This document shows, in pieces, positions 23,441 to 41,008 of a stretch of 64,000 nt of DNA. A program made the position numbers and the translations under genes. How positions within the stretch are numbered: position 1 is the first letter of the stretch; each line of letters begins with the position of its first letter. A model generated the notes under the pieces. The model saw nothing but the letters and a program-made list of their open reading frames with translations. It was not told the DNA's origin and ran no database searches. The stretch is from an uncultured Chloroflexia bacterium (GTDB lineage Bacteria; Chloroflexota; Limnocylindria; Limnocylindrales; CSP1-4): positions 99,487 to 163,486 of the forward strand of contig CAVZND010000011.1 of assembly GCA_963776545.1 (NCBI GenBank). The letters run 5' to 3'.

Positions 23441-23515
23441 CCGCCGATCGCCTGATCGCGACTCAGCAGGGCGGCGGTATGCATCGGTCTCCGAAGTCTG
23501 CTGGTTCTGGGCTGG

Positions 23516-24010: not shown

Positions 24011-24070
24011 CGAGACGACCCGGGCGACCTGGCGACCATCGGCATCGTCGATCCTCGAACTGGGCTTGCG

Positions 24071-27000: not shown

Positions 27001-27106
27001 CATGGGCAAGCTCGACGCAAGGAGTCGATTCGAAGCCGCGGCCATCGCGACCCGGCGCGGACTCCTCGCCGGACCCTCGGACGAGCCCGGTGCGCCGGTC
27101 CCATAG
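24071..27106 (+). CDS. large ATP-binding LuxR-family (LAL) transcriptional regulator
   Basis: Walker A (VTGEAGVGKSRL), a long TPR-like helical middle, and a C-terminal LuxR HTH (LTPREREVVAYLAEGRTNREIAEALFMSERTASVHVSNLMGKL). Confidence 0.9.
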   Translation: MGTAAAHHRRVARRVSSDRFIGRANDLGRLTAAYAEATAGRSLFVLVTGEAGVGKSRLLNEARRGFEAAGATVLVGGCIQLGDELPFGPVVEALRPLVATLGRDRVLALAGPHRLALERLIPELTPTPERVPDEHASGAWRLYEAVRTLLTRMTRDGPVVLAIEDVHWADASTRALLQYLLGTLDHSPILVVATYRSDEVSARHPLLPVLAELGRSGDIERLDLEPFGRTDLGDLATSILGHPLDGRDLDTLVERSDGNPFLAEELMAASAAGMGRQEIPITLADVLAARLAGLSPDARRIVRAASVLGRRVDHRLLTRILPDPEVQVLACLREAVDERILVPADAGASVAYAFRHALVGEAAYDELLPAERVALHGAVAQALQAETADDELPAEVAGEIAYHAFRAHDLPRALVTAIRAAVAATAIYAYPEALRQYERAIECWPDVPDAGSLTGLERWELLFRAARSAAAAHDPARGCRIAEAALETLGPGRELEAGAIVAQSFWFAWEAADYETLERFGSAGVKLVPAGTPGDLRAQVLANLAALRRYHGHHEEALALGREAVTAARQAKARGAEGRALAVVAETLSHLGRPDAALVAFGEAAEAAADAGDREELVRIAHGSTWAHEIAGRFDQGLEIAERALEASVAAGSESRHGDFLRAVIIECLVELGRWQEVDELIRRVDERWIASPATAWAEVMVMRIHISRGEFTEAVRIHDRTIDIPAIAFNLVWETEEGSHLAYAEGRVAEARRIVDTAIAACPTPHDSALWWILSKAVTGEADAASDARARRRKQEVDAAIGFGTRYGDLLRHSLGLAIATGEAGPLAEAYLVWETAERSRLVDRADPAAWDRAASTREALPQPYEAAYARFRHAEAILAAAGSRDAAERALRTAHATATVLEAKPLLRRIEELARRARLSVTARRPAGRVRGRSTELTPREREVVAYLAEGRTNREIAEALFMSERTASVHVSNLMGKLDARSRFEAAAIATRRGLLAGPSDEPGAPVP

Positions 27107-27633: not shown

Positions 27634-28068
27634 TCATGGCCGGCGCGCCGGCGTCATCGCGTCGTGCCCGGGGAGTCCGCATTCGGACAGGGCGGCGGCG
27701 AACCCGTCGAGGTCGTCGACCGTCAGGTAGAGCGCCGGGACGCGCAGCCCCATCCGGGGGACCGGCTCACGGAAGTCGATGCGGACGCCGCCACGGTTGG
27801 TGCCACCAAATGTCAGGTCCCGATGGCGGACGCTGTAGCGGACGCCGATCGCGGTGATCCAGCGCCACGGACCCTCGATCCGCCACGAGGCGAGGTTGCT
27901 CGTCGGTGTCCGGAATCGGAAGAAGCCGAAGTGCGCATCGAGCTCGTCGTCGCCGAGATCGACGTAGGCGTTGGACGCCCGGACCCCGAACAACAGAAGG
28001 ACGAACCTCGACCGCCTGCCGAGTCGAAGCGGGAACCGATGGGTGCTCGCCGCGGCAGGCAGCGTCAC
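27634..28068 (-). CDS. hypothetical protein (144 aa), last gene of the CFA-synthase operon
   Basis: GTG 28068 overlaps the cfa stop (GTGA at 28065-28068). Good GC3. No motif recognised. Confidence 0.7.
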   Translation of the reverse strand: MTLPAAASTHRFPLRLGRRSRFVLLLFGVRASNAYVDLGDDELDAHFGFFRFRTPTSNLASWRIEGPWRWITAIGVRYSVRHRDLTFGGTNRGGVRIDFREPVPRMGLRVPALYLTVDDLDGFAAALSECGLPGHDAMTPARRP

Positions 28069-29306
28069 CCGATCCCGCGCCGCTTCTCGAACACGACCTG
28101 CAGATCCTGGCTGATCCCGGTCGCGAAGCCTGCCTCGCTCAGTGCGAGGTAGTACTCCCACATCCGGATGAACCGGTCGTCGAACCCCATCCGCCGGACG
28201 GACTCGAGCTGGGCCATGAACCGCGTCCGCCAGGCCCGCAGCGTCAGCACGTAGCTGGGGCCGATGTCTGTCACGCCGCGGACCAACAGCCGGGTGTCGC
28301 GGGTCGCGCGTTCGATGACCGAGAGCGATGGGCAGAGACCGCCCGGGAAGATGTACGTCTGGATCCAGTTGGCCCCCCGGCGCTGCGTCTCGTAGGCGGC
28401 GTCCGGGAACGTGATCGACTGGAGGCTCATCCGCCCGCCTGGGACCAGCGCCGCGTCGCAGGTCCGGAAGAATGTCTCGAAGTACTCGGCGCCGACCGCC
28501 TCGAGCATCTCGATCGAGACGATCGCATCGTACGTGCCGCTGATCTCGCGGTAGTCGCGCAGCTGGACATCGATGAGGCCGTCGAGACCCGCGTCGCGGA
28601 CGCGCTCGCGGGCGAGCTCGAACTGCTCACGCGAGATCGTGATCGAGGTGACACGGCAGCCGATCTCGCCGGCGGCATACAGGGCGAACCCGCCCCATCC
28701 GGTGCCGATCTCCAGGACGTGGTCGCCTCGGGTCAGGCCCGCCCCCTCGGCCACGAGCCGGTACTTGTTGCGCTGAGCGTCGGCGAGGGACTGGTCGGGC
28801 GATGCGAAGACCGCGCTCGAGTAGGTCATGGTCTCGTCCAGGAACAGCCGGTAGAAGTCGTTGCCGAGATCGTAGTGGGCGGCGATGTTGCGCTGGCTCT
28901 GCCGGCGGGTGTTGCGCCGCAATCGATGGGCAAGCGTCCGTCGGAGCTGGGCGGGCACGCGCCACCAGCCACTCGACAACGCCAGCGCCTCTCGATTCAA
29001 GGCGGCAACGCGCAGGAGAACTGCCAGGTCCGGGCTCGACCAGAGACCGTCCATGTACGCTTCGCCGCCGCCGGTCTCGCCGCCGACGAGCATCCGGACG
29101 AGCGCCTTGCGGTCATGGATGCGGATCTCGCCCCGTTCCGGCGCCGTCGGGTCGCCGAAGACCTGGCTCGATCCGTCGGGGAGCACGACGGTCAGGGCGC
29201 CGACGCGGATGCGGGCCAAACCGGCCAGCCCGATGCGCCAGGCGATGCGTGCAAGGAATGAGTCGTCGGTCGCGGGAGCGCCTCCCGCAGTGATTCGCGT
29301 GTTCAT
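28065..29306 (-). CDS. cfa: cyclopropane-fatty-acyl-phospholipid synthase family SAM-dependent methyltransferase
   Basis: SAM motif VLEIGTGWGGFALYAA and the CFA-synthase family layout (NIAAHYDLGNDFY...). ATG 29306 overlaps the DUF1365 stop (ATGA). Confidence 0.9.
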   Translation of the reverse strand: MNTRITAGGAPATDDSFLARIAWRIGLAGLARIRVGALTVVLPDGSSQVFGDPTAPERGEIRIHDRKALVRMLVGGETGGGEAYMDGLWSSPDLAVLLRVAALNREALALSSGWWRVPAQLRRTLAHRLRRNTRRQSQRNIAAHYDLGNDFYRLFLDETMTYSSAVFASPDQSLADAQRNKYRLVAEGAGLTRGDHVLEIGTGWGGFALYAAGEIGCRVTSITISREQFELARERVRDAGLDGLIDVQLRDYREISGTYDAIVSIEMLEAVGAEYFETFFRTCDAALVPGGRMSLQSITFPDAAYETQRRGANWIQTYIFPGGLCPSLSVIERATRDTRLLVRGVTDIGPSYVLTLRAWRTRFMAQLESVRRMGFDDRFIRMWEYYLALSEAGFATGISQDLQVVFEKRRGIG

Positions 29307-30043
29307 CGCGTGGCAGCTCCATGTCGATGGAAGGCGGCCCCGCGCCGCCACAGCCGCAGGGCATGCCAGTGGATGAGCCCGATCGTCTTCTGGGTGACGA
29401 AGGGGTGACGGACGAGCATCCGCGCGACGGCCCGATCCGTGAGCGGCCGGCGGGTGAGGTCGAGGCTTGTGTGCAGGAGCAGTTCGCTAGCCTGGTCCTC
29501 GTTGATCGAGATCCGTAGTCGCCCCGGCTCGTCGCGGACTCGGACCGTGTAGCGCCCGACCATCTCGATGAAGGGCGAAACGTAGAAGTCCTTGTCCATC
29601 GAGGCCGCGAAGTCAAGCTCGTTCGTCGGGCGGCGGAGGGTGTACAGGTGCCGTTCGCGATAGGTGTTGTGGACCTCGACGATGACGACCTGCAGCTCGC
29701 CGGCAGCATCCCGGCATAGATAGAAGCTCGCCGGGTTGAAGACATAGCCGAAGACCCGCAGGTTGGCGATGAGGGTGATCCGCCATCCGTCCGGATCGAT
29801 CCCCTCCGTTCGAAGGAGCGCGCGGGCCGCCTCGGACAGATCCACCGCCGGCGGGGCCAAGTGGTCCCCGTCCCGGAACGAGAGGAGATTGGGCCGGTTG
29901 CGGCTGACGAGCCGGACCTTGCGGGGCACCACATCGAGCTCATCGAGATCAAGCGCGACGTAGTAGACGTCGTGCTCGAGCGCGTACACGAACGGACGGG
30001 CGCGGCGGTGGCGCACCTTGCCCTCGAGCAAATGCGACCTCAC
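29303..30043 (-). CDS. DUF1365 domain-containing protein
   Basis: [32 protein letters not shown]... is the typical DUF1365 N-terminus. GTG 30043 overlaps the upstream stop (GTGA). Confidence 0.88.
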
Positions 30044-31311
30044 GCCGCACGCTCCTGGACGGCCGGTAACAGCAGCTCGGCTACCTCGAATCCGGATCGA
30101 CAACCGTCCTCGTGGAACCCGTAGCCAAGGTGGGCCCCGGCGTAGAAGGTGCGCCGTCGGCCCTGGAGTTCCCGTACGGCCCCCTGGGCATCCAGCGTGC
30201 GGAACGTGTAGAGCGGGTGACTGAAGCTCCGTTCCACGAGGACGCGCTCCCGATCCACCCGGTCGCCCGAATTCACTGATGTGAAGTACTGGACCGGCCC
30301 TGGCAGCGACTGCAACCGGTTCATGTGGTACGTCATAGCGAGCCCTTCGCCCGGTCGCCGGCAGTCCGCCTGGTCGACGTTCCAGGAAGCCCAGGCACGA
30401 CGTCGCCGGGGCATGAGCCGGGCGTCCGTGTGGAGCGTGACCTGGTTCCTGTTGTACTCGAATGCCCCGAGGACGGCTCGCTCGTGCGGATCGGCATCGC
30501 GCAGGACCGCCAGCGCGTCATCCGCATGCGTCGCGATGACGACCGCGTCGAACCGTTCGGTTGCGCCGGCGGCTGTCATGACGGTGACCCCCAGGTCGTC
30601 GCGAACCACGCCGACGACCGCATCCCCGGACCGCACCGACCCCGCCGGGAGCGCGGCGACGATGCGCCGGACGTACGCCATCGAACCACCGCTGATCGTC
30701 CGCCACTGGAAGGATCGGCCGACCCCGATCAGGCCGTGGTTGTCGAGGAACCGCAGGAGATAGTCGATCGGGAAGTCGAGGATCCGCTCCGGCGCCGTCG
30801 ACCACACCGCCGAGGTGATCGGGATGATGAAGTGGTTGCGGAAGCCCGACCCGTAGCCACCGTCGTCGAGGAAGTCGCCCAGCGTGGCGCGCGACAGCGT
30901 GTTCGCGTCGAGAAGCCGCCGAGCCTCGCCGTAGAACCGCAGGACATCCGTGATCATCCGCCAATGGGAGGGACGGACGACCGAATCGGTTCGCGCGAAA
31001 TAGCCGCGCGCACCGCGCGAGCTGAAGGCCACGCGACAGGCATGGCAAGCGGAGCCCAGGGACATGTCGCTCGGCTGCGTCTCCACGCCGAGTTCGGCCA
31101 GGAGTCCGGTGAAGCGCGGGTACGTGCGTTCGTTGTAGACGATGAATCCGGTGTCGACGGGAATGGCCCCACCATCGGCTTCCACGGGTACGGTCTTGAC
31201 ATGCCCGCCGACCGCCGGTTCCGATTCGAACAGCCGGACCTCGTGGTCCGTCCGCAGAGCGTATGCGGCGGTCAGCCCGCTCACGCCGCCCCCCACGACG
31301 GCGATCCTCAT
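30040..31311 (-). CDS. NAD/FAD-binding amine-oxidase-like oxidoreductase (partner of DUF1365/CFA synthase)
   Basis: ATG 31311 ([19 protein letters not shown]...[10 protein letters not shown] dinucleotide fold). The N-terminal 380 aa of listed ORF 30040..32460 is antisense to the SDR gene. Confidence 0.9.
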
Positions 31312-31781
31312 GACGGGTCCGCCTGGAACTGGCCACCCGCGGTATCGGCCCGAGCGTCGAGGGCGCGCTGCATCCCGGCGAGCGCATCGCGGCCAAGCTT
31401 CGCGAACGCCCGACCGAGGAACGGCTGGACGAGCCGCAGGACGCCGCCCAACCGGATGTCGGCCGAGTAGTCGATCCGGGTGCCGCTCCCGGATGGTTCG
31501 AAGCGGATCTCGTCGACCGCCGAGACCCCCGAACCCTGCCCCACGAGGACGACCCGGTGGGGCGGCTGGAAGGTGGAGATCCGGTACTCCATCGGGGCGA
31601 CCCGGCCCCCAAGTCGGACATCCAGTCGATAGCGGGCGCCGAGCCCGACAGGGCCGTCGTCGATCCGTTCGGAGGTGACGGTGCCGGGGTCCCAATGCAT
31701 CGCGTTCGCGAAGTCCGCGATGAAGGCGAACGCCGCCTCCGGTTCCAGCGGCGTTTCGATGTGCTCGGTGATCCTGGTCAC
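31308..31781 (-). CDS. SRPBCC family (polyketide cyclase/dehydrase-like) protein
   Basis: [30 protein letters not shown]... SRPBCC pattern. GTG 31781. Its stop overlaps the next ATG (ATGA at 31308-31311). Confidence 0.8.
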
Positions 31782-31867
31782 GGTCGACTCCGATCCGGGT
31801 GATACTCGGGCGCACGGGGGACCCATCCGGACCAAGCGATGGCCGGTCCGCCGGTGCGATCCGAGAG

Positions 31868-32866
31868 GTGTTGGTGGACGTCAGGACGCTCATCGACGGC
31901 GGCCTCGAGATGTCGGTCGTGGCGAGCTTCAGTCGGGTAGGCATCGCCGTTCGCCGACGGCTGTTCCGCTGGACTGCGCCACCGGCCGATGCGCTCGCGG
32001 GCCGGACGGTCCTGATCACGGGCCCGACGTCCGGCCTGGGCCGTGCGGCGACGGAAGCTTTCGCCGGACTCGGGGCGCGCGTGATCCTCGTCGGCCGCAG
32101 CCGGGAACGGCTCACAGCGGTTCGGGATGCCCTCGTGGCCGTCCACGGCGAGGACCGCTTCCCGATCGTCGTGGCCGACATGGGCTCGCTCGACTCGGTC
32201 CGCGCGGCCGTCGAGCGCGTGCTGGCCACCGAGTCGCGGCTCGACGTCCTCGTCGACAACGCGGGCGCGATCTTCCCCGAACGGACCGACGGGCCGGACG
32301 GGATCGAGGCCACCCTGGCGACCCTGGTCGTGGGGCCCTTCACCCTCGTGTCGGGCCTCCTGCCGCTGCTCCGGCAGACCGAGGGATCGCGGGTCATCGC
32401 CGTGACCTCGGGTGGCATGTACACGCAGGGCGTCCGCTTTGACGACCTGCAGTGGGTCACCGAGCCGTTCTCGGGCCCGCGGGCCTATGCCGGCGCCAAG
32501 CGGATCCAGGTCGCGCTCATGCGGGAGTGGGCGCGTCGGCTTACGCCGTCCAACGGCTCGTCCGGCATCACCGTCAACGCGATGCATCCCGGTTGGGCCG
32601 ACACGCCGGGACTCGCCGAGGCCCTGCCGGGCTTCTATCGCTTGATGGGTCCGGTCCTCCGAACCCCGGCCGAAGGGGTGGACACGCTCGTGTGGCTGGC
32701 TGCGTCGCCCGAAGCCGGAGTGCGGAGCGGCGAACTCTTCCTGGACCGCCGCCCGAGGCCCTTCGACCGCTTCCCGGGGACGCGTCTCTCGCCCGTCGAT
32801 CGCCGACGTCTTTGGCGAATGGTCGTGGAGTTGTCCGGTGTGCCCGACCCCCTTCCCGAAGGCTGA
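31868..32866 (+). CDS. SDR family oxidoreductase (DHRS12-like)
   Basis: [10 protein letters not shown] cofactor motif, NAG, and catalytic YAGAKR. Divergent from the SRPBCC operon. GTG 31868 chosen; ATG 31910 is an alternative. Confidence 0.88.
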
Positions 32867-33040
32867 GGCGGCGAACCTCGACGAAACCGCGCTGGGGGCA
32901 TGGTTTGCGGACACGGCGATAGGCGTGGTCTTCGGCTCGGATCGGCGATCCACTGACGGGGACTCCTGGTCGTGAACGAGGTGGCTCCGGGCCCCCTCGA
33001 GTCGAGGTTGGTGTTCACCCTTTGTTTAAGGTATGCCGAA

Positions 33041-33090
33041 CTGTAGCGGCAGTGTCCAGGGATTGTCAAGCTATTCTGGGTGCGTATACT
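33041..33090 (+). promoter_or_regulatory. promoter of the CarH/LitR gene with 11-bp-phased TGT repeats (candidate CarH operator); near-leaderless
   Basis: -35 TTGTCA (33063-33068), 16-nt spacer, -10 TATACT (33085-33090), ATG at 33100. TGT recurs at 33042, 33053 and 33064. tTGTcaAgcTa matches the reverse complement of the CarH direct-repeat pattern nAnnTnnACAn as I recall it. Confidence 0.45.
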
Positions 33091-33099
33091 CAACAAAGC

Positions 33100-34053
33100 A
33101 TGTACACAATCAAACAGGCCGCGGCCCGCACCGGCCTCAGCGTCCCGGTCATCCGGGTCTGGGAGCGCCGGTATGGCGTCGTGCAGCCGAGCCGTACTCC
33201 GGCCGGCTACCGGCTCTACGACGAGGAGTCGATCGCCCGCCTGGCCGCGATGCGCCGATTGGTCGCCGAGGAGGGCTGGCAGCCAAGGCAAGCGGCGCAA
33301 CGGGTGCTCGAGCCTGGGTTCGATCCGCTGGAGGCAGTCGGCGAAAGCGCGGGCCGGGCCGATCGGGCCGGATCGTCGATCGGCTTGGTCACCGGCGTCG
33401 GGCAGCGAGATCAAGAGGTGTCGCTAGTGCGCGCGTTCGTCGCCGCGGCCCACGACCTGGACGTTCCGGCCATGGAGCGGATCCTTGACGAGGGATTCGC
33501 GTCCCATCGCTTTGAGCTGGCGATCGAGGCTCTTGTCTCTCCGGCAATGCGAGCTATCGGCATCGCCTGGGCCCAGGACGAGATCGACGTCGGCGCTGAA
33601 CATGCGGCGAGCGAAACGGTCCGACGACGGCTGGCGCGCTTCTACGATGCGGCCGGGCTCGGTGACCGGGTACCACGTGTGGTCGTCGGCCTGCCCCCGG
33701 ATGGGCAGCACGAGATCGGGGCATTCGCCTTCGCCGTGGCCACCCGGCGGGCCGGGCTCGAAGTGCTCTATCTCGGTGCGAACGTGCCGCTGGAGAGCTG
33801 GCTCCGGACCGTCGATGAGACCATGGCGCCGGTCGTCGTCATGGGGGTGGTGACGCCGTCCGATGTCGTAGCGGCGGGCGTCGTGATCGACGCGCTCGGC
33901 CAGTCAGCCAGATCGCCGATCTGCCTCGTCGGCGGCCCGCTGTCCGCCGATTCGCTCGGCGGACTCGAGACCATCCGCCTTCCGACGCCACTCGACGACG
34001 CGGTGGCGGCGGTGGCCAGGCTCCTCGGCTCCGACGAACGGGCCCCCCGCTGA
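33100..34053 (+). CDS. MerR family, cobalamin-binding light-responsive transcriptional regulator (CarH/LitR type)
   Basis: MerR HTH (MYTIKQAAARTGLSVPVIRVWERRYGVVQPSRTPAGYRLY). B12-binding_2 helix bundle with W-x9-EH (AWAQDEIDVGAEH). B12-binding Rossmann domain with the His loop (PPDGQHEIG). Confidence 0.9.
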   Translation: MYTIKQAAARTGLSVPVIRVWERRYGVVQPSRTPAGYRLYDEESIARLAAMRRLVAEEGWQPRQAAQRVLEPGFDPLEAVGESAGRADRAGSSIGLVTGVGQRDQEVSLVRAFVAAAHDLDVPAMERILDEGFASHRFELAIEALVSPAMRAIGIAWAQDEIDVGAEHAASETVRRRLARFYDAAGLGDRVPRVVVGLPPDGQHEIGAFAFAVATRRAGLEVLYLGANVPLESWLRTVDETMAPVVVMGVVTPSDVVAAGVVIDALGQSARSPICLVGGPLSADSLGGLETIRLPTPLDDAVAAVARLLGSDERAPR

Positions 34054-34093
34054 GGCGACCCTGGTGTCAGGACGCCGGAGCGGCGTGCGTCCA

Positions 34094-34960
34094 TCACGGG
34101 ACCGGTCGAGCGCCGCGTCCCCTCAGCGCTTGGATCAAGTCGCCAAGCATTCGCGGGTCCGGGACCCATCCGTCCGCGCCGAGATCTAGCGCCGCCCGCT
34201 CGTCGGGGATCGCGTGTCCGCCGACCAACCGTGGAACCGACGGCCGTTCCCGACGGGCGGCGGCCAAGAGGCGCCCGGCTGCCGGTCGACGCTCGCTGTC
34301 GACGACACTCACGATGACCGCGGCCAACGATCCTGCATCGTGCATCGCAGCGGCAAACGACGCCGTCGGAGTGTCGGGGCCCAGGTTGAGGACGCCATAT
34401 CCGGCGTGGGCGAGGATGTCGGCGAGCATCGCGACCCCGAGTCCGTGACGTTCGCCGGGCGGCATCGCCACGATGACGACGCCCTTCTTGCGGCCTGGGC
34501 GCGCGAAGCGCGGGCCCAGGCGTCCGATCAGCGTCGCAGCCACACTGCTCGCGAGATGCTCCTGGTCGATGGAGATGTCGCCCGATCGCCACGACGCCCC
34601 GATGTCGCGGAGCGTCGGCGTGAGGATGCTCACGTAGATCTCGCCTGGCTCGAGTCCCGAGGCCATGGCCGCTTCGACGACTTGCCAGCTGCCCGCCGCG
34701 TCGCCGCTGAGCATTCGCGCCTGGAGACGCTCCTGCCAGGTCGATACCCGCGGATGACCAGTCCCGCGGCGGCGACGACCACGGTCGGGCGTTGTGGTCG
34801 TCCGCTCGAGATCGGCGGGATCGACCATCCACGTTCCGCCGACCTTCCGTGCCGGCAGGATCCCCAGCCGAACGCGCCGGTAGATCGTCATGTAGTGGAC
34901 GCCGACGCGTTCGGCCGCCTCGTGCAGGCTGAGATGACCGGACGCGTCGGATGGGGTCAA
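34094..34960 (-). CDS. excisionase-type HTH + cobalamin-binding domain protein (second CarH-type photoreceptor candidate)
   Basis: HTH (LSLHEAAERVGVHYMTIYRRVRLGILPARKVGGTWMV), W-x9-EH (SWRSGDISIDQEH), His loop (PPGERHGLG). TTG 34960 overlaps the heliorhodopsin stop (TTGA at 34957-34960). Confidence 0.85.
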   Translation of the reverse strand: MTPSDASGHLSLHEAAERVGVHYMTIYRRVRLGILPARKVGGTWMVDPADLERTTTTPDRGRRRRGTGHPRVSTWQERLQARMLSGDAAGSWQVVEAAMASGLEPGEIYVSILTPTLRDIGASWRSGDISIDQEHLASSVAATLIGRLGPRFARPGRKKGVVIVAMPPGERHGLGVAMLADILAHAGYGVLNLGPDTPTASFAAAMHDAGSLAAVIVSVVDSERRPAAGRLLAAARRERPSVPRLVGGHAIPDERAALDLGADGWVPDPRMLGDLIQALRGRGARPVP

Positions 34961-35727
34961 CCCGCCAGCGTCCCCGCGAACACCTGCCAGGCGAGCGCCG
35001 ACTTCGCGACCAGGCTGAGCATGAAATAGGCCCTCTCGCCGAAGACGTACGACTGCCAGCGACCGACCCGCCGGTACTGGAGCCACATGTTAAGCGCGAA
35101 TATGTTGAAGAAGACGAAGAGCGAAAGGAAGATCGCGTAGACGAAGGCGGGCGGCTCGGCCGCACTTCCTGGTGACCAAAGGTAGACACCAACGGCCAAC
35201 CACGGCGCGATCCCCACGACGCACCCAAGCCAGAACGGCCACAGCGAGCCGCCCGGCCGCTCGTATCGCTCCTGGACCGCACCGAAGAAGATCATCGCTG
35301 CGTTGGCGGCGAAGATGCCGATGAGTGCCGCGACATCGCTGATCCCGGTGAGCATCGCGATGAGCACGATCATCACCGACGATGAGAGCGAGTACTCGGC
35401 CCAGCGAAAGTAGTTGTGCTCCGCCCCCAGTCCGGCGATGTAGCGCCCGAACACGCCGGGCAGCGCCACGAGCCAGTGGAACACGGCCGACAGCAGGAGG
35501 AAGAGGGCGACGCCCCAAGCCACGGAGACTTCGAACAGCGGGATCGGCGCGCTGGCCGGGGTGCCCGGCGGCCCCTCCATGAACGTCGCCGTTACCGGCA
35601 GCGCGAAGGCGGTCGCGAGGGCGAGGACGGCGACGGCCTGGATGGCATGGACGAAGCCCAGCCCGATGTTCCAGCGCCGCAGGGAGGCGGCCCGGGTGAC
35701 AGGGAGGTCCAAGGTTGGCGAGATCAT
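34957..35727 (-). CDS. heliorhodopsin
   Basis: Blocks EGPPGT, SAVFHWLV, FRWAEYSLSSSVMIVLIA, PFWLGCVVGIAPW, FVFFNIFALNMWLQYR and GERAYFMLSLVAKSALAWQVFAGTL (TM7 Lys) match heliorhodopsin 48C12 almost residue for residue as I recall it. ATG 35727 chosen; GTG 35748 (after AAAGGAA) is an alternative. Confidence 0.92.
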   Translation of the reverse strand: MISPTLDLPVTRAASLRRWNIGLGFVHAIQAVAVLALATAFALPVTATFMEGPPGTPASAPIPLFEVSVAWGVALFLLLSAVFHWLVALPGVFGRYIAGLGAEHNYFRWAEYSLSSSVMIVLIAMLTGISDVAALIGIFAANAAMIFFGAVQERYERPGGSLWPFWLGCVVGIAPWLAVGVYLWSPGSAAEPPAFVYAIFLSLFVFFNIFALNMWLQYRRVGRWQSYVFGERAYFMLSLVAKSALAWQVFAGTLAG

Positions 35728-35775
35728 GCGTTGGTCGGTGGCGATCACAGACTGAGTTCCTTTGCATGGGGATGC

Positions 35776-35807: not shown

Positions 35808-35834
35808 TGGGACTGGGCTGGGTGGTTCGCTGGG

Positions 35835-36430
35835 TCAGTCGGCCGGCGGCAGGATGACAGCGTCGATGACGTGGATGACGCCATTGGACGCCAACACGTC
35901 GGCGGTGACGACCTTGGCGCTACCGTTCAGGAAGACGGTTCCGTCCTTGACGGACGACAGCTGATGGGCGATCCCTCGACCGAGTCGGCAGAGGTGAGTC
36001 CGACGACCTTGTCGGCCGTCACGGCCGCGGGGACGACGTGATACAGCAGGACCTTCTTGAGGGCTTCCTTGTCGGCGAGCAACCCCTCGAGCGTGCCGGC
36101 AGGCAGCGCGGCGAACGCCTCGTCGGTCGGGGCGAAGACGGTGAACGGACCGTCGCCCTGGAGCGTCTCCACGAGACCGGCGGCCTTGGCCGCGGTCAGC
36201 AGGGTGGTGAACGAGCCCGCTTCGGTGGCGGTCTCGACGATGTCCTTTGCCATGGCGTCAGCCGACGGCGAAGGCGCCATGCTCGGGGATGCGGCGTTGG
36301 TCGATGCCGGGCTCGGAGTGGACACGACGGTTGGCGCTGCGCTCGGCGACGCGGCGGACGAGCAGGCCGCGATCGCGATCGCGAGCGCTGGCACGAGGAG
36401 GACGATGGATCGCTTCATGGTCGATGACAT
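35835..36430 (-). pseudogene. fasciclin (FAS1) domain lipoprotein, reading frame broken by an apparent 1-nt deletion near 35958-35965
   Basis: Lipobox AIAACSS and FAS1 blocks [13 protein letters not shown] and LLYHVV. ORF 35927..36430 ends in ...[17 protein letters not shown]. The conserved FAS1 C-terminus ([41 protein letters not shown], stop at 35835-35837) continues in another frame. Confidence 0.8.
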
Positions 36431-36479: not shown

Positions 36480-36508
36480 AGTATTTAGCACTAAATACAA
36501 TCTGTCAA
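36480..36508 (-). promoter_or_regulatory. sigma70-like promoter of the fasciclin gene with an embedded 18-bp palindrome
   Basis: Minus strand: TTGACA (36503-36508), 17-nt spacer, AATACT (36480-36485). The palindrome GTATTTAG-ca-CTAAATAC (36481-36498) fills the spacer and -10. A second palindrome GTCGGGCaGCCCGAC (36454-36468) lies in the 5' UTR. Confidence 0.5.
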
Positions 36509-36629: not shown

Positions 36630-37178
36630 CTGGGCGCCACTTCCGGTCAGTGCTCGACGACCTGCTCCAGGTTGCCGGCCGCCTCGATCCAGGCGGTGAT
36701 CTCGGCCTCGCTCGGTAGACGGCGGACGATCCCAGGCCGGGCGGCGACGACCTCCTGGACGGTCACCGCGAGGTTCGCCGGGTTGCGCTGGGCCAACTCG
36801 GCCGGTGAGCCGACGCCGGCGGCCCCGAGCAGGTCGCTGTACTGCGGCCCGACGCCCGGGACCCGCATGAGATCGACGTTGTCGACCCAATCGAGGATGA
36901 GCTTGCTGCTGATCCCGGTCGCCTCGGCGAGCCGCTCGCGGTCGTATGGCCGAGCACCAGCCGCGAGCAGGTCGTCGGTCGTCCGGATACCCGCGCCGGC
37001 GAGCGTCTCGCCATAGGCCGGTCCGATCCCCTCGACGTCCTCGATCTTCTTCGAGCGGGCGGCTTGGGGCTCCTCGACGTCTGCCGCCGCGACCACGGCA
37101 GGCGGGCGCCTCGACGGGCTCCGGAGCTGCCGCCTCGATCGCGACCGCAGCGACGGCCGCGGCCGCGACAGGAGCCGG
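36630..37178. repeat. 549-bp direct repeat, copy 1 (3' part of a DUF4332 gene plus 17 bp downstream)
   Basis: Aligned by eye to 39839..40386, it differs by 3 substitutions and one 1-nt indel (extra G near 37100-37103). Confidence 0.95.
36647..37096 (-). CDS. DUF4332 domain protein, truncated duplicate (possible gene remnant)
   Basis: The 149-aa ORF is identical to the C-terminus of the 39856..40845 product. It starts at an internal GTG. The upstream Ala/Pro linker remnant is out of frame because of the indel and there is no N-terminal membrane domain. Confidence 0.55.
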   Translation of the reverse strand: MVAAADVEEPQAARSKKIEDVEGIGPAYGETLAGAGIRTTDDLLAAGARPYDRERLAEATGISSKLILDWVDNVDLMRVPGVGPQYSDLLGAAGVGSPAELAQRNPANLAVTVQEVVAARPGIVRRLPSEAEITAWIEAAGNLEQVVEH

Positions 37179-37188
37179 CCACCCCAGG

Positions 37189-38478
37189 TCAGGTACCGTC
37201 GCCGGGGTCGTACAGCTCGACCGCTCGGCTGTTCTTGCTGTAGTCGCCCGCCAGGAGGACCCTGCCGTCGAGGAGCACGGTCGCGCTGTAGCCGACTCGG
37301 GCCCGGACCGGTTTCGCGGTACTGGTCCAGCGGTCGCTGCTCGGGTCGTAGAGCTCTGCGGAGGGAGGCCTGTCCCAGAGGCCCTCATTGACGACGAGCA
37401 CGGTGCCATCCGTCAGGAGCGTCGCCGTGTGGAAGATGCGGGCCGTCCCCATGCTGCCGGTCGCGGTCCATCGCCCGCTGACCGGGTCGTACAGCTCGGC
37501 GGTGGCCCATGCGCCGGGCTCACTGCAGGCGCAACCGCCCGTGACCAGCACCGTCCCGTCGGTCAGGAGCGTCGCCGTGTGACCGAAGCGACCGTCGGCC
37601 ATGCTCCCGGTGGCGGTCCATCGGCCCGTGTCGGGGTCGAACAGCTCCGCGGACGTGTAGCCACCGTCGCCGCCAGCGACGAGGACCCGGCCGTCGGGCA
37701 GCAGCGTCGCGGTGAAGCCCTTGCGAGCCTCGGTCATGCTTGCGATCGTCATCCAGCTACCGGTGATGGGGTCGTACAGCTCAGCGGTCGCGCTTCGCGG
37801 CCCGCCTTCCAGCTCCGTGTCCTCGGCACCGCCGCCCACCACGAGCACCTTCCCGTCGAGCAGCAGCGTGGCGGTGTGTCCACCGCGGCCATGGCGCATC
37901 GTCCCGGTGGCGGTCCATCGCCCCGTGCCCGGGTCGTACAGCTCGGCCGTTGCCAGCGGATCGGCGCTGTTGATGTAGCTGCCCGCCACAAGCACCTTGC
38001 CATCCGGTAGCAGCGTCGCGGTATGCCCCCAGCGGGCCCCCGCCATCTTCCGAGTGGCCGTCCATTTGCCGACGCTCGGGTCGAACAGCTCGGCGGAGGC
38101 GGAAACCTGACCATCCAGTCGGTCGTTGACCAGGCCGCCGGCGACGAGCACGCGGCCGTCGGGGAGCAGCGTCGCCGTGTGATAGGCGTGGGGCGCGATC
38201 ATCTTCCCGGTCGCATGCCACGCAGCGGTCGCGGTCACGGGTGGTGTCACCGGCTGGACCGATGCCGGTGCGATCGATGCCTGCAGGGGGCTCGGGGACG
38301 CTTCGGCGGACCGCACCGAGCTCACCGTCGGCGACGGGTACGGCGACGGCGAGGGTGTCGCGACCGAACCCAGTGACGCCGGCAGAGGCGACGTCGTCGC
38401 ACCGGCAACACATCCGCCCAGCAACGCCAGCGAGGCGAGACCCACCCCGAGTCGTGCGGTCCTCGTGTGACGATGCAT
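37189..38478 (-). CDS. Kelch-repeat (7-bladed beta-propeller) lipoprotein
   Basis: ATG 38478 after GGAGG. Lipobox LLGGC. Seven regular repeats of the form HTATLLPDGxVLVAGG...AELYDPxTGxWTATGxM. Confidence 0.88.
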   Translation of the reverse strand: MHRHTRTARLGVGLASLALLGGCVAGATTSPLPASLGSVATPSPSPYPSPTVSSVRSAEASPSPLQASIAPASVQPVTPPVTATAAWHATGKMIAPHAYHTATLLPDGRVLVAGGLVNDRLDGQVSASAELFDPSVGKWTATRKMAGARWGHTATLLPDGKVLVAGSYINSADPLATAELYDPGTGRWTATGTMRHGRGGHTATLLLDGKVLVVGGGAEDTELEGGPRSATAELYDPITGSWMTIASMTEARKGFTATLLPDGRVLVAGGDGGYTSAELFDPDTGRWTATGSMADGRFGHTATLLTDGTVLVTGGCACSEPGAWATAELYDPVSGRWTATGSMGTARIFHTATLLTDGTVLVVNEGLWDRPPSAELYDPSSDRWTSTAKPVRARVGYSATVLLDGRVLLAGDYSKNSRAVELYDPGDGT

Positions 38479-38602
38479 CGCGTCTGCCTCCGGGTCCACC
38501 CCGAGCGCCTTCGATCGCCTGGTGCTTTCGAGCCTAGGACGCGTCGCCGGGTCGGATGTTTCGGCCGGTCGCGTGCGTCACAGCGAGTCGTAGGATGCAA
38601 CG

Positions 38603-39793
38603 GTGCGGCGCTTGCTGGACCAAGCCCTGTCCATCGCGGCGGAGGCGGGCGACGACGACGATCTGCGCCTTCGCAAGCGCGTGGCCGTCATCGCCGGCTA
38701 CGTCACGATCGGTGCTGTCCTCATCCTCCCACTCGTTGGGACCGCGACCTTCCTGACGGTGGTCGCGGCGCTCGCGATCGCGATGGCCATGGCGGGCAAC
38801 CTCATCCTCCTCGCCCGCACGCGTCGCTTCACCCGCTTCGTCATCGTGAGCTTGTTGGCGGGAGCCGCCTACACGCTCTTCGCCGACACTGCCGAGGGAG
38901 GACTCGCAGCCTCCGGAGGCTGCGTCGTCTGGGCGTTGCTGATCCCCGTATTCGCCATCCTGTTCCTCGGCCCACGGCAAGCGATCCCGTGGTACGGGCT
39001 CTTCGTTGGCGTCCTCGTGACGATCATCCTCATCGATCCGCTGGTGAGCGCTCGACCGGCGCCAGCCCCGTACTGGATCCAGCTGACCTACTGGTTCGAG
39101 AACATCGCGGTGCCGGGAACGATCATCTTCCTCCTCCTCCGATACACGGACATCCGGCGTCTCGGCGCCCAGGCCCGGTCGGACGAGCTCCTGACCAACG
39201 CCATCCCGGCCTCGATCGCCGCGCGACTCAAGCACGGCGAACAACGGATCGCGGAACGGTATTCGGATACGACCATCCTGTTCTCGGACATCGTCGGTTT
39301 CACCCCGTGGGCGCTTCGAACCGATCCGGACCGGGTCGTTGCCCTCCTGGACCAGCTCTTCACCAGCTTCGACGAGCTGGCTTCCACGCACGGCATCGAG
39401 AAGATCAAGACCATCGGCGACGCGTACATGGCCGCCTCCGGTGCGCCGGAGGCGCGGTCAGACCACGCGGAAGCAGCCCTGGCGATGGCGTCCGCCATGC
39501 TCGTCGCGTTCAACGACTGGCGAGCGGACAATGCGCCGGACTTGGCCCTGCGCATCGGGCTCGCATCAGGAGACGTCGTGGCGGGGGTCATTGGGGAGCA
39601 GCGCGCCCAGTTCGACCTGTGGGGTGACGCGGTCAATCTCGCCTCCCGCATGGAGGCGACCGGGGTGCCCGGGCGGATCCAGGTCGCGCAGTCGACATGG
39701 GCGCTGTTGCGCGATCGGCATGCGTTCGAGGCGCGGAAGCCGATGGAGATCAAGGGGCTGGGCCTGACGCCGACCTACCTGCTCGCGCCGTGA
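38603..39793 (+). CDS. membrane-anchored class III adenylate/guanylate cyclase
   Basis: 6 TM helices, then a cyclase homology domain (TILFSDIVGFT...KIKTIGDAYMAASG...RIGLASGDVVAGVIG...DLWGDAVNLASRME). GTG 38603 lies 6 nt after TAGGAT, so the transcript is possibly leaderless. Confidence 0.9.
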   Translation: MRRLLDQALSIAAEAGDDDDLRLRKRVAVIAGYVTIGAVLILPLVGTATFLTVVAALAIAMAMAGNLILLARTRRFTRFVIVSLLAGAAYTLFADTAEGGLAASGGCVVWALLIPVFAILFLGPRQAIPWYGLFVGVLVTIILIDPLVSARPAPAPYWIQLTYWFENIAVPGTIIFLLLRYTDIRRLGAQARSDELLTNAIPASIAARLKHGEQRIAERYSDTTILFSDIVGFTPWALRTDPDRVVALLDQLFTSFDELASTHGIEKIKTIGDAYMAASGAPEARSDHAEAALAMASAMLVAFNDWRADNAPDLALRIGLASGDVVAGVIGEQRAQFDLWGDAVNLASRMEATGVPGRIQVAQSTWALLRDRHAFEARKPMEIKGLGLTPTYLLAP

Positions 39794-39838: not shown

Positions 39839-40386
39839 CTGGGCGCCACTTCCCGTCAGTGCTCGACGACCTGCTCCAGGTTGCCGGCCGCCTCGATCCA
39901 GGCGGTGATCTCGGCCTCGCTCGGTAGACGGCGGACGATCCCAGGCCGGGCGGCGACGACCTCCTGGACGGTCACCGCGAGGTTCGCCGGGTTGCGCTGG
40001 GCCAACTCGGCCGGTGAGCCGACGCCGGCGGCCCCGAGCAGGTCGCTGTACTGCGGCCCGACGCCCGGGACCCGCATGAGATCGACGTTGTCGACCCAAT
40101 CGAGGATGAGCTTGCTGCTGATCCCGGTCGCCTCGGCGAGCCGCTCGCGGTCGTATGGCCGAGCACCAGCCGCGAGCAGGTCGTCGGTCGTCCGGATACC
40201 CGCGCCGGCGAGCGTCTCGCCATAGGCCGGTCCGATCCCCTCGACGTCCTCGATCTTCTTCGAGCGGGCGGCTTGGGGCTCCTCGACGTCTGCCGCCGCG
40301 ACCACAGCAGCGGGCGCCTCGACGGGCTCCGGAGCTGCCGCCTCGATCGCGACCGCAGCGACGGCCGCGGCCGCGACGGGAGCCGG
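39839..40386. repeat. 548-bp direct repeat, copy 2 (within the intact DUF4332 gene)
   Basis: See copy 1. The period is 3209 bp. Confidence 0.95.
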
Positions 40387-40845
40387 AGCGGCGACCGGTG
40401 GTGCGACCGGCGCTGGCGCCGGAGCGACGGGCGGCGCAGCCGCCGCCTGCGCGGGCGCCCGCTCGCCGAAGGCCGCCTTGACTTCAGCGGTCATCAGGTA
40501 CCAGAGGATGACTCCGGGCATGAGCGCCATCGCGAAGCCGACGCCGGTGCCGGGGAAATGGAGGAATGCCAGCCCCGCCTCGAGGAGCGCGAAGGCTGCA
40601 ACGACGATCGCGAAGATGCGAGCCCACTGCTGGAGTGCCCAGAGACCCCCGGCCACGAGCAGCCAGACGATCCCGGTGGCAACGGCAAGCCAGCCCCAGA
40701 GTCCGACGTTCTCGAAGGCGGGAAGGTCGCCGAGCGCCCCGAACCAGTCGAAGCCGAGGAGCTGGATGCCGAAGAACAGGAGACCGAAGCCTGCTAAGGC
40801 CGCGAAGAAGCCAAGGATCGCGATCAGGATGGGCGGGTTCTTCAT
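39856..40845 (-). CDS. membrane protein with Ala/Pro-rich linker and C-terminal DUF4332 (helix-hairpin-helix-like) domain
   Basis: ATG 40845 (MKNPPILIAILGFF...). 4 TM helices, an APAPAPVAPPVAAPAP linker, then a DUF4332-type block IEDVEGIGPAYGETLAGAGIRTTDDLL...LMRVPGVGPQYSDLL. Confidence 0.85.
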   Translation of the reverse strand: MKNPPILIAILGFFAALAGFGLLFFGIQLLGFDWFGALGDLPAFENVGLWGWLAVATGIVWLLVAGGLWALQQWARIFAIVVAAFALLEAGLAFLHFPGTGVGFAMALMPGVILWYLMTAEVKAAFGERAPAQAAAAPPVAPAPAPVAPPVAAPAPVAAAAVAAVAIEAAAPEPVEAPAAVVAAADVEEPQAARSKKIEDVEGIGPAYGETLAGAGIRTTDDLLAAGARPYDRERLAEATGISSKLILDWVDNVDLMRVPGVGPQYSDLLGAAGVGSPAELAQRNPANLAVTVQEVVAARPGIVRRLPSEAEITAWIEAAGNLEQVVEH

Positions 40846-41008
40846 CGGTGGGTCCTTTCGGCACTGCCAACGCGCGCCAACGTGGGGCGAACGACCGCCG
40901 GCTTCCGTCTCCGCAAGTCTCCGGCGGACACCACGAATACTAGACAACCAGACCGCTCGCGTGCACGAGCGCCGCCCATGATCGTGACGCTCGTGGCACC
41001 GTAGCCCG

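Follow-up and report, generated by a model that had tools for sequence, protein, structure and literature searches.

Two genes in the window (the whole 64,000-nucleotide stretch of DNA that was analysed), here called A and B, encode regulators with CarH-like B12-binding modules and belong to separate modules. It is probable that these are two independent light-response modules placed tail to tail, in which B represses an operon containing a heliorhodopsin gene and A controls a module of its own.

Gene A (33100..34053, plus strand) starts with ATG and encodes a 317-aa protein with a MerR-type HTH and a CarH-like B12-binding module. Gene B (34094..34960, minus strand) starts with TTG and encodes a 288-aa protein in which a CarH-like B12-binding module follows an HTH_17 (excisionase-type) head. 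The public gene calls P0121 (317 aa) and P0001 (288 aa) are 100% identical to A and B, respectively, and agree with both reading frames of the preliminary description. The different heads claimed there are borne out by Pfam, which places MerR_1 (PF13411, E 1.8e-14) in A and HTH_17 (PF12728, 1.2e-8) in B; the NCBIfam 'excise' domain (TIGR01764) also exceeds its cut-off in B. B12-binding_2 was found in A (8e-9, above the cut-off) and in B (5e-12). The B12-binding domain reached 5e-11 in B and 2e-7 in A, where 31.2 bits fall slightly short of the 32.1-bit cut-off. Gene A is a candidate regulator of the class I LitR/CarH type, of the ordinary MerR-headed kind. It matches TtCarH in the PDB (5C8D, phmmer E 2.9e-30), its best NCBIfam match is CarH at 150 bits (under the 400-bit equivalog cut-off), and 2926 relatives were found at E<=1e-10. 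Its MerR_1 DNA-binding head (residues 2-65; 33103..33294, plus strand; Pfam and PDB alignment) aligns with residues 26-102 of the TtCarH DNA-binding domain and also with the CarA DNA-binding domain 2JML.

The four-helix-bundle B12-binding_2 domain of A (33430..33639, plus strand) contains G154xxW157 (W codon 33568-33570) and E167-H168 (33598-33603). Its Rossmann B12-binding domain (33682..33942, plus strand) contains the axial-His candidate H204 (33709-33711) in PPDGQHEIG, and G226xxxP230. In B, the four-helix bundle (34520..34735, minus strand) carries G121xxW124 (W codon 34589-34591) and E134-H135 (34556-34561), and the Rossmann domain (34169..34480, minus strand) carries G169ERH172 (His codon 34445-34447) and G194PDTP198. 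The W-x9-EH motif reported earlier for both proteins, AWAQDEIDVGAEH in A and SWRSGDISIDQEH in B, aligns onto AWHRGEIGVAEEH of TtCarH (phmmer against the PDB). With the codons checked, W157, E167, H168 and H204 of A and W124, E134, H135 and H172 of B align to TtCarH W131, E141, H142 and H177. Because the PDB alignments reach homology E-values of 1e-16 to 1e-30, these are not chance motifs, and the W, E, H and axial His are correctly assigned. The published signature of light-responsive B12 domains (SignatureFinder) consists of GxxW, EH, GxxH and GxxxP (PMC11796333). All four elements are present in B (G121ASW, E134H, G169ERH, G194PDTP). The His loops proposed earlier, DGQHEIG in A and GERHGLG in B, do align onto GERHEIG, but the loop of A departs from the published G-x-x-H. 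A contains GIAW, EH and GANVP and, in place of GxxH, G-x-H (DGQH), in which the Gly is displaced by one position. This Gly202 is at least 90% conserved in the family of A, which makes the G-x-H loop the usual form there.

The AF2 model of B (pLDDT 86) shows a winged-helix HTH_17 head at residues 10-53 (34802..34933, minus strand; also found by Pfam and NCBIfam), followed by a disordered Arg-rich linker at residues 53-68. In a Foldseek search with this model, the best 50 PDB matches were all B12 photoreceptor modules (photocobilin, CarH, CtMerR). The target-normalised TM is ~0.8 against the isolated B12-binding domains of TtCarH and CtMerR, and the rmsd to that of TtCarH is ~2.8 Å. By sequence, the best PDB match of B is CtMerR (8JBS, E 2e-16). 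The head alone gave noise only when compared with PDB sequences and matched neither the CarH nor the CtMerR head. The combined HTH_17 and B12-binding architecture forms a family of 217 clusters at 50% identity (E<=1e-30); in 33 sampled representatives, HTH_17 was found in all 33 and both B12 domains in 32. B would work like CarH, yet it is not a class I LitR, as its head is HTH_17 and not MerR-type.

The predicted operon runs from a fasciclin (FAS1) lipoprotein gene through the heliorhodopsin gene to B, which is last. The fasciclin gene (35834..36418, minus strand; Pfam) encodes a signal peptide with the lipobox IAAC. It is frameshifted near 35955-35960: in tblastn, the match to the intact L005 orthologue divides between frames -1 and -3. 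Either the operon is decaying or the sequence contains an error at this point. The heliorhodopsin gene (34957..35748, minus strand) has a GTG start with AGGA 9 nt upstream and encodes 263 aa, 100% identical to P0241 (263 aa). It matches Pfam PF18761 with E 6.7e-96 over profile positions 1-242 of 242, and the NCBIfam HeR equivalog NF038020 with 308 bits against a cut-off of 100. The protein carries the motifs RWAEY (E118) and SLVAK (K249), which we take to hold the counter-ion Glu of helix 3 and the Schiff-base Lys of helix 7, equivalent to E107 and K241 of 48C12. The heliorhodopsin TGA stop overlaps the TTG start of B (GGTTGA), and the same overlap was found in the closest relatives. Of the roughly 61 loci in which B reaches at least 52% identity, about 44 have a full heliorhodopsin gene directly upstream, and most of these also have the fasciclin gene. 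Sampling from the heliorhodopsin side gave the fasciclin-heliorhodopsin-B array in 4/4 places. The operon is distributed among soil Chloroflexota (Limnocylindrales-like) and Acidimicrobiia. Distant homologues of B in Acidimicrobiia adjoin an ECF sigma/anti-sigma pair, a photolyase and an SDR.

A near-consensus, sigma-70-type promoter, TTGACA-17-AATACT (36480..36508, minus strand; promoter scan), stands at the head of the operon. An 18-bp inverted repeat, GTATTTAG-TG-CTAAATAC (36481-36498), covers the promoter spacer and the -10 element and is unique within the window, against 0 expected. Its core, TTTAG(T/C)(G/A)CTAAA, heads the B-containing operon in 56/80 loci, with the core TTTAGTGCTAAA placed between a conserved TTGACA and the -10. 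The palindrome precedes fasciclin where fasciclin is present, heliorhodopsin where fasciclin is absent (L017, L024, L025, L026, L033) and fasciclin alone where heliorhodopsin has been lost (L004, L041, L042, L050, L059, L061). A related motif lies directly before B in the distant loci L058, L062 and L077. In L067 and L069, a B-type palindrome precedes a gene that is similar at its N-terminus to the ECF sigma factor beside B in L071. The palindrome is proposed as the candidate operator of B. The 17-bp spacing and the consensus -35 favour repression over MerR-style activation. CarH occupies three direct repeats in tetrameric form; one palindrome with two-fold symmetry would imply a different DNA-binding geometry for B.

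Heliorhodopsins were discovered in 2018, and their function has been debated since. The operon could mean that heliorhodopsin and B are a functional pair, in which the membrane protein binds or modulates B through sequestration or a conformational relay upon illumination, so that retinal and AdoCbl signals are integrated and B is the transcriptional output of heliorhodopsin. The overlap of stop and start codons suggests coupled translation and, as it holds in the closest relatives, is consistent with such a pair. The same is true of L087, in which a second heliorhodopsin, only 48% identical, was inserted independently between an A-type promoter and the A orthologue. This insertion indicates that heliorhodopsins joined B12 regulators of both head types. 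For heliorhodopsins, binding to soluble proteins of their own operon (glutamine synthetase, photolyase, ABC transporter) is the reported mode of action. A 'MerR family regulator' is among ten recurrent heliorhodopsin operon neighbours (PMC11109279), and an adjacently encoded LOV photoreceptor acts through a class II LitR regulator (PMC9758184). However, the photoreceptor signature of B itself is complete, so external light input is not needed. Moreover, heliorhodopsin is reduced to a C-terminal remnant or gone in at least ten related loci in which B, the promoter and the palindrome remain, and among the 80 loci heliorhodopsin is missing altogether beside B homologues at <=50% identity. The co-occurrence is already accounted for if light gates the expression of a protein that itself uses light, and a functional pair is unlikely. 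A retinal and AdoCbl two-chromophore unit, with heliorhodopsin gating B and the outer-face FAS1 lipoprotein perhaps supplying a carotenoid or retinoid, is likewise a long shot. If it were true, the recruitment of heliorhodopsin beside a MerR-headed regulator in L087 would point to association with the B12 module and not with a particular head. The data favour a regulator that controls the heliorhodopsin gene over a heliorhodopsin that controls an enzyme.

Photoreception by A and B can also be questioned. One or both could sense cobalamin availability or redox, or could no longer bind the cofactor, in the manner of Myxococcus CarA, which is independent of B12. B12-binding domains are common in non-photoreceptor roles, the Rossmann score of A is marginal, and its loop is GxH and not GxxH. 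The equivalent of TtCarH H132 is missing in both proteins, with Ala158 in A (Ala, Ser or Val in its orthologues) and R125 in B; for this reason the photochemistry after Co-C cleavage may differ. Among the 33 distant HTH_17-B12 representatives, ~28 keep all signature residues and some lack W, H or the axial His. Within both close families, however, these residues are invariant: W157, E167, H168 and H204 across 14 A orthologues, and the W, E, H and H172 in 49 B relatives. A first 14-sequence alignment of B had W124 alone below invariant, owing to the frameshifted P0119. GxxW-x9-EH is kept in 80/80 B loci, and those inspected for GxxH and GxxxP have both stretches. The fold of the B model matches photoreceptor modules before any corrinoid methyltransferase protein, and the neighbours are consistently light-related (heliorhodopsin, photolyase, UfaM-like cluster). 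A decoy domain without the signature failed to bind AdoCbl in a published test (PMC11796333), and a published comparison found that the H132 position varies among light-responsive B12 domains. A role other than light sensing is improbable on these grounds.

It is similarly doubtful that the palindrome at 36481-36498 serves a regulator other than B, such as the MerR-type A. MerR proteins classically bind palindromes within the promoter spacer, and the position seen here is typical of operators of that family; A-type genes may also sit elsewhere in genomes where they are not near B. Nevertheless, the motif follows B across two phyla, through gain and loss of cargo genes, and A-type promoters show different conserved boxes and no such palindrome. 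MerR-activated promoters have an over-long spacer of 19-20 bp, and the spacing here is 17 bp.

The regulatory region of A (33013..33099, plus strand) was defined by a promoter scan and conserved blocks. It contains a conserved box, GTTCACCCTTTGT (33013-33025), a -35 element TTGTCA (33063-33068) and a -10 element TATACT (33085-33090), and ACAAAG (33093-33098) abuts the ATG of A. Since these predicted elements lie directly before the ATG, the mRNA would be nearly leaderless. A second, divergent promoter-like site lies on the minus strand (33069..33040), and a palindromic -35 is common to both directions; the scan gave 3 sites against 0.3 expected. The promoter blocks (TTTGT/ACAAA boxes around the -35 and the start) are kept in 11 A-type upstream regions. 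The operator pattern of TtCarH consists of 11-bp direct repeats, and TGT occurs three times at 11-bp spacing near A (33044, 33055, 33066). A TtCarH-style set of three 11-bp direct repeats was rejected for this promoter: orthologues do not keep the pattern, and only one repeat fits the consensus.

The gene cluster linked to A (28065..32866, both strands; Pfam) is of the photo-oxidative-stress type. It comprises genes for a CMAS/UfaM-like methyltransferase (28065-29486), DUF1365 (29303-30103), an FAD amine oxidase (30040-31404) and SRPBCC (31308-~31790), all on the minus strand, and an SDR gene (~31910-32866) on the plus strand. The same SDR-SRPBCC-amine oxidase-DUF1365-CMAS cluster adjoins A orthologues in 11 loci (L001, L011, L018, L032, L033, L052, L081, L086, L087, L088, L089), and it adjoins 4/4 A orthologues that were sampled independently. 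This cluster and the heliorhodopsin and fasciclin operon of B were overlooked in the preliminary description. Of the three promoter regions named there, 33041-33090 and 36480-36508 are relevant, but promoter and motif scans of the divergent region between SRPBCC and SDR (31782-31867) found neither A-type boxes, a shared motif nor a promoter-like site. Control of the whole cluster by A is therefore less certain in the arrangement of this genome.

A and B are convergent, as first described, with their stops 40 bp apart. A hairpin or terminator in the 40-bp spacer (34054..34093) is no better than in shuffled sequence (z -0.1 and -1.2). Outside the window, this junction is seen only in L081, the closest relative (91% identity). 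Only 7/80 loci have an A homologue less than 8 kb away from B, and there both distance and orientation vary. The B12 modules of A and B are ~25% identical, and each is nearer to TtCarH (A 32%, B 30%) than to the other, so the two genes are neither close paralogues nor recent duplicates. A comparison of B12 modules places A beside TtCarH, and B beside CtMerR. The A promoter lacks the palindrome, and the operon promoter lacks the TTTGT boxes. Because the genomic distributions of A and B are largely independent, the hetero-oligomers once suggested are without support. Mixed B12-dependent oligomers, with the tail-to-tail placement for joint control of targets, are very unlikely: both modules hold the residues for AdoCbl contacts across the dimer interface and the genes are adjacent here and in L081, but the modules belong to different clades, the association of the genes is inconstant and their conserved operators differ (palindrome versus TTTGT boxes). 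Separate regulons, the other suggestion made earlier, fit the data, since A and B each have a separate, conserved promoter/operator architecture.

For the two independent modules, we infer from the sequence AdoCbl binding, a light-dependent oligomer change, the pairing of protein and DNA site and repression in the dark. Most likely, AdoCbl-bound B keeps the 36480..36508 promoter repressed in the dark until light relieves the repression. The first module (minus strand, 36508 to 34094) would express the FAS1 lipoprotein, heliorhodopsin and B from the near-consensus promoter, and B would be an AdoCbl-dependent, CarH-type photoreceptor-repressor with an excisionase-type head. In the dark, oligomeric AdoCbl-bound B would occupy the palindrome and block RNA polymerase. 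Green, blue or UV light would photolyse the Co-C bond, the oligomer would dissociate, and B would come off the DNA. The lipoprotein, heliorhodopsin and B would then be produced, and fresh B would re-repress the operon in the dark. Under such light-released repression, heliorhodopsin would be a light-induced cargo gene. In the second module (plus strand), A would be a MerR-headed CarH/LitR-type repressor that controls itself from a separate, bidirectional promoter marked by TTTGT/ACAAA boxes. The adjacent SDR-SRPBCC-amine oxidase-DUF1365-CMAS cluster would probably be under its control as well. The 64-kb window contains no genes for cobalamin synthesis or uptake, retinal, carotenoid or photolyase. 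An Rfam scan of the whole window gave no match, hence no cobalamin riboswitch.

A resembles CarH and class I LitR (CarH of Thermus thermophilus and Myxococcus xanthus; LitR of Bacillus and Streptomyces) in its MerR head-helix bundle-Rossmann architecture, in the Wx9EH motif and axial His, in adjoining light-protective genes and probably in autoregulation. B shares their B12 module and presumably the dark-bound, light-released logic. Unlike these proteins, A and B lack the H132 of the bis-His light state. A adjoins the cluster described above instead of carotenoid genes and fits the 11-bp direct-repeat pattern of TtCarH weakly, whereas B differs from CarH by its HTH_17 head and palindromic candidate operator. 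LitR-LitS of Streptomyces combines a B12 regulator with an ECF sigma factor. The Acidimicrobiia homologues of B, with an ECF sigma/anti-sigma pair and then a photolyase, resemble this system, but the sigma factor is absent from the module in the window and the head domain differs.

CtMerR of Chloracidobacterium thermophilum (8JBS/8JBT) is reported to bind AdoCbl and to change from tetramer to monomer in light, and its head is described as MerR-family (PMC11796333). It has the same four signature elements as B, with Arg at the H132 position in both, and the two B12 modules are ~27% identical. As its head is MerR-family and the head of B has no PDB counterpart, B is not simply an orthologue of CtMerR. 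No heliorhodopsin context is reported for CtMerR, unlike B.

The pmlR1 region of Pseudomonas, which encodes a class II LitR, contains SDR, FAD oxidoreductase, the furan-fatty-acid synthase UfaM and photolyase, and light induces genes close to pmlR1 and pmlR2 (PMC9758184). The cluster of A resembles this region in having SDR, FAD oxidoreductase and UfaM/CMAS beside a LitR-family regulator. PmlR2 and PmSB-LOV of Pseudomonas mendocina likewise place a LitR-family regulator beside a separate photoreceptor gene. Class II LitR proteins have the helix bundle only and presumably cannot bind B12, which is why their light input comes from the LOV protein (PMC9758184). A and B differ in having complete B12 modules.

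Reports on heliorhodopsin neighbours mention 'cobalamin-binding proteins' (bioRxiv 10.1101/2021.02.16.431466) and catalogue a 'MerR family regulator' group (PMC11109279). As in the heliorhodopsin-partner operons with glutamine synthetase, photolyase or the ABC transporter OmrDE, a soluble protein is co-transcribed. These reports (PMC11109279; bioRxiv 10.1101/2021.02.16.431466) do not identify the neighbour as a CarH-like photoreceptor, and they describe no operator, autoregulation model or fasciclin partner, unlike the operon analysed here. A literature search found no genuine pairing of heliorhodopsin with CarH, LitR or adenosylcobalamin; the sole match was false ('litre').

Several LitR/CarH-family regulators per genome are already known, as shown by the three PplR proteins of Pseudomonas putida (PMC9758184) and by the CarA/CarH paralogues of Myxococcus. 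The pairing of A and B is the less surprising part of these results. The head of B and its operator could serve CarH-based green-light optogenetic tools. At least ~200 clusters (50% identity) of excisionase-headed, uncharacterised B12 regulators gain a predicted DNA site and regulon. If the two-chromophore unit were true, heliorhodopsins would have in B their first known transcriptional output. The heliorhodopsin gene seems to owe its induction to a B12 photoreceptor-repressor, and this compact and conserved operon, with its sharply defined candidate operator, gives a testable handle on heliorhodopsin function.

A heliorhodopsin operon on the minus strand ends in the regulator gene B (34094..34960, -). 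The first gene of this operon encodes a FAS1 lipoprotein (fasciclin; 36418..35834, -) with the lipobox IAAC, and it is followed by a full-length heliorhodopsin gene (34957..35748, -; PF18761, E 6.7e-96; NCBIfam HeR equivalog, 308 bits) in which the RWAEY and SLVAK motifs are both found. The TGA of heliorhodopsin and the TTG of B overlap in the sequence GGTTGA. A promoter scan of 6.5 kb returned three promoter-like sites against 0.3 expected, including that of the operon, TTGACA-17-AATACT, at 36508..36480 (-). Its spacer and -10 are covered by an 18-bp palindrome, GTATTTAG-TG-CTAAATAC (36481..36498, -), which is single in the window even with up to three mismatches (0 expected). The fasciclin gene is frameshifted near 35955-35960 and divided between two reading frames, which reflects either a sequencing error or a pseudogene; the copy in the related locus L005 is intact. 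Similar frame breaks are seen in four related assemblies (L011, L028, L032, and L052). This fasciclin-heliorhodopsin-B operon, with its sharply conserved palindromic operator candidate, is the more interesting result and lies just beyond the region covered by the preliminary description, which did not mention the heliorhodopsin gene that immediately precedes B in the same orientation.

B has 288 amino acids and a TTG start, and its neighbor A (33100..34053, +) has 317 amino acids and an ATG start; the public gene calls P0001 and P0121 are identical to B and A, respectively. The base composition of the window is approximately 70% G+C, and its nearest relatives are Chloroflexota assembled from soil metagenomes, under the label "Chloroflexia" or "Candidatus Limnocylindrales". 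Pfam assigns MerR_1/MerR, B12-binding_2, and B12-binding domains to A, the last with a score of 31.2 bits (cut-off, 32.1), and HTH_17, B12-binding_2, and B12-binding domains to B, where the excisionase-type "excise" domain of NCBIfam also scores above its cut-off. When all PDB sequences were searched with phmmer, both proteins aligned to Thermus thermophilus CarH (TtCarH). Residues W131, E141, H142, and H177 of TtCarH correspond to W157, E167, H168, and H204 of A and to W124, E134, H135, and H172 of B (codons checked). No variation at these positions was seen among 14 orthologues of A (identity as low as 56%) or 49 relatives of B (as low as 66%). The alignment and this conservation bore out the earlier claim that both proteins carry the CarH-type W-x9-EH motif and His, with W, E, H, and the axial His correctly assigned. 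The different DNA-binding heads and the tail-to-tail arrangement, with 40 bp between the stop codons, were also confirmed.

B is a CarH-like module joined to an excisionase-type head. Its top PDB sequence match by phmmer was 8JBS, the B12 domain of a Chloracidobacterium thermophilum regulator (CtMerR) that is reported to bind AdoCbl, respond to green light, and change from tetramer to monomer (SignatureFinder paper, PMC11796333). The light-responsive B12 signature is defined there as GxxW, EH, GxxH, and GxxxP (PMC11796333); all four elements are found in B, and three in A, together with the G-x-H variant usual in the A family. Neither protein has an equivalent of TtCarH H132, a position at which CtMerR carries Arg, as does B. 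In the AlphaFold2 model of B (mean pLDDT 86), residues 12-52 form a winged-helix head, 53-68 a disordered linker rich in Arg, 70-152 a four-helix bundle, and 161-283 a Rossmann domain. The best 50 PDB fold matches of this model were without exception B12 photoreceptor modules, from photocobilins, CarH, or CtMerR. A sequence counterpart of the head was sought in the PDB and none was found; therefore, B as a class I LitR/CarH was ruled out. The HTH_17 + B12 architecture is a large family of 217 clusters at 50% identity (E<=1e-30). In a family sample, HTH_17 was present in 33/33 members, both B12 domains in 32/33, and the complete W/EH/H set in about 28/33. The SignatureFinder database mining names "HTH" fusions only generically (PMC11796333), and no paper mentioning CarH along with "excisionase" was found in the open-access literature.

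A belongs to the standard MerR-headed CarH/LitR type and has 2926 relatives at E<=1e-10, many of them annotated as "light-induced transcriptional regulator". Its left-hand neighbors encode, according to Pfam, an SDR, an SRPBCC protein, an FAD amine oxidase, a DUF1365 protein, and a CMAS-type methyltransferase. Except for a partial copy in L028, all A homologues near B adjoin this cluster, as do the A homologue of L081, the closest relative, and all four independently sampled A orthologues (57-81% identity); in the orthologue at L089, a photolyase gene comes next. The cluster resembles the pmlR1 region of Pseudomonas, which contains SDR, FAD oxidoreductase, furan-fatty-acid synthase UfaM, and photolyase, and genes near pmlR1 and pmlR2 are light-induced (PMC9758184). 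The scan placed the A promoter, TTGTCA-16-TATACT, at 33063..33090 (+), which makes the mRNA nearly leaderless. It is overlapped by a strong divergent promoter-like site, TTGACA-18-TACAGT (33040..33069, -), with which it has a palindromic -35 in common. This divergent site is aimed away from A, and the divergent SDR cluster of relatives would be transcribed from it; in the window, the SDR gene is inverted, and what lies ahead of the site is a non-coding stretch of approximately 170 bp, followed by the SDR antisense strand. Eleven A-type upstream regions have in common the blocks GTTCACCCTTTGT, the palindromic -35 TTGTCAA, TAnnnT, and ACAAAcCATG, which are good but tentative operator candidates.

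Direct BLASTP of A against B gave only 29% identity over 113 residues. For comparison of the B12 modules, 14 members of the A family and 13 of the B family were aligned with segments of TtCarH and CtMerR. Module identity is 24.6% (range 20-28) between A and B, 31.9% between A and TtCarH, 29.8% between B and TtCarH, and 27.3% between B and CtMerR. A neighbor-joining tree grouped A with TtCarH and B with CtMerR. These identities and the tree ruled out A and B as recent duplicates, and their B12 modules are old, separate lineages. Of the earlier interpretation, the part that stands is a pair of B12 photoreceptor-type regulators whose heads differ and whose regulons are separate; the part that fails is paralogues that may hetero-oligomerise.

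Species-representative genomes were scanned with the B alignment, which yielded 80 loci in Chloroflexota and Acidimicrobiia, and the window proteins were mapped onto them. B occurs at >=52% identity in approximately 61 loci; a full heliorhodopsin lies directly upstream in approximately 44, most of these with fasciclin as well. When places were sampled from the heliorhodopsin side, the fasciclin-heliorhodopsin-B array was present in 4/4. The heliorhodopsin stop and the B start overlap or abut in the closest relatives and are 44-71 bp apart in more distant loci. The palindrome core TTTAG(T/C)(G/A)CTAAA is found in 56/80 loci, always preceded by TTGAC(A/T), and the palindrome is the head of whichever operon has B as its final gene. 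It lies 5' of fasciclin in most loci, 5' of heliorhodopsin where fasciclin is absent (L017, L024, L025, L026, and L033), and 5' of fasciclin alone where heliorhodopsin is absent (L004, L041, L042, L050, L059, and L061). Among distant loci, a related motif stands immediately 5' of B in L058, L062, and L077, and the palindrome stands 5' of a gene resembling a B-adjacent ECF sigma factor in L067 and L069. In L002, L004, L009, L010, and L020, only a decayed C-terminal remnant of heliorhodopsin (helices 6-7) is left in the approximately 250 bp upstream of B; it still abuts the B start codon, and fasciclin, promoter, and palindrome are intact. These losses look repeated and independent because the deletion end-points differ.

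Since the palindrome heads every type of B-ending operon, the constant pair is B and the palindrome, with heliorhodopsin and fasciclin as cargo, and the palindrome was assigned to B for this reason. B would act as a repressor at the palindrome-bearing promoter, with no MerR-style activation; repression is proposed because the promoter has a consensus -35 and 17-bp spacing. We infer all mechanistic steps that go past sequence, fold, and conservation. Other members of the B regulon would be marked by TTTAGTGCTAAA sites.

B homologues at <=50% identity have no heliorhodopsin. Those in L068 and L071 stand alongside a photolyase and an SDR, and L071 also has an ECF sigma/anti-sigma pair, a grouping that recalls Streptomyces LitR-LitS. 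Two tandem B-type palindromes (TTAGTGCTAAA) precede a gene downstream of B in L067 (~2874-2930) and L069 (~9030-9075), from MAGs labelled Gammaproteobacteria and Acidimicrobiaceae, respectively. The N-terminus of this gene product is like that of the ECF sigma factor adjoining B in L071. A LitR-LitS-like cascade is suggested in these two lineages.

On one MAG contig, CAVYZQ010000011.1, two complete fasciclin-heliorhodopsin-B operons (L011 and L018) lie approximately 37 kb apart, each with an A-type gene and an SDR-SRPBCC-amine oxidase-DUF1365 cluster nearby. Beyond the operon, the window contains two DUF4332 + helix-hairpin-helix genes (36647..37096 and 39856..41049, both -), with a Kelch-repeat protein (37189..38499) and an adenylate/guanylate cyclase (38594..39793) between them. 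The first DUF4332 gene is also found upstream of the operon in L081, but none of the 80 genome loci has it there. A Vsr-type mismatch endonuclease gene (23456..24010) and three LuxR-family (GerE) regulator genes (24011..27106, +; 41401..44421, +; 62387..64000, -) are also present; the first two LuxR-family products have approximately 1000 amino acids, with AAA_16 and TPR regions of MalT-like type.

"Cobalamin-binding proteins" have been named among heliorhodopsin neighbors, with no further analysis (bioRxiv 10.1101/2021.02.16.431466). In 2024, "MerR family transcriptional regulator" was listed as one of ten recurrent heliorhodopsin operon neighbors, and protein-protein interactions were suggested (PMC11109279). 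In the searchable literature, no paper genuinely linked CarH, LitR, or adenosylcobalamin to heliorhodopsin; the sole co-occurrence was a false match. A FAS1 lipoprotein as pigment feeder of heliorhodopsin is only a lead, because a 2025 preprint proposes external xanthophylls for heliorhodopsins and leaves fasciclins unmentioned.

The conserved operon and its conserved palindromic operator candidate together imply that the heliorhodopsin gene is probably under B12-photoreceptor control. A second link is found at L087 (5975..7939), where an A-type promoter and an A orthologue are separated by a heliorhodopsin only 48% identical to that of the window. The promoter retains every conserved block, and the old ATG is mutated to ATT; a trace of the A start context, ACAAACCAT(T), is still seen upstream of heliorhodopsin. 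In L087, a heliorhodopsin was recruited independently to a B12 regulator with a MerR head. Therefore, autoregulated units of either regulator type have taken in a heliorhodopsin, which fits light-gated heliorhodopsin expression and keeps alive the idea that heliorhodopsins and B12 modules are functionally connected.
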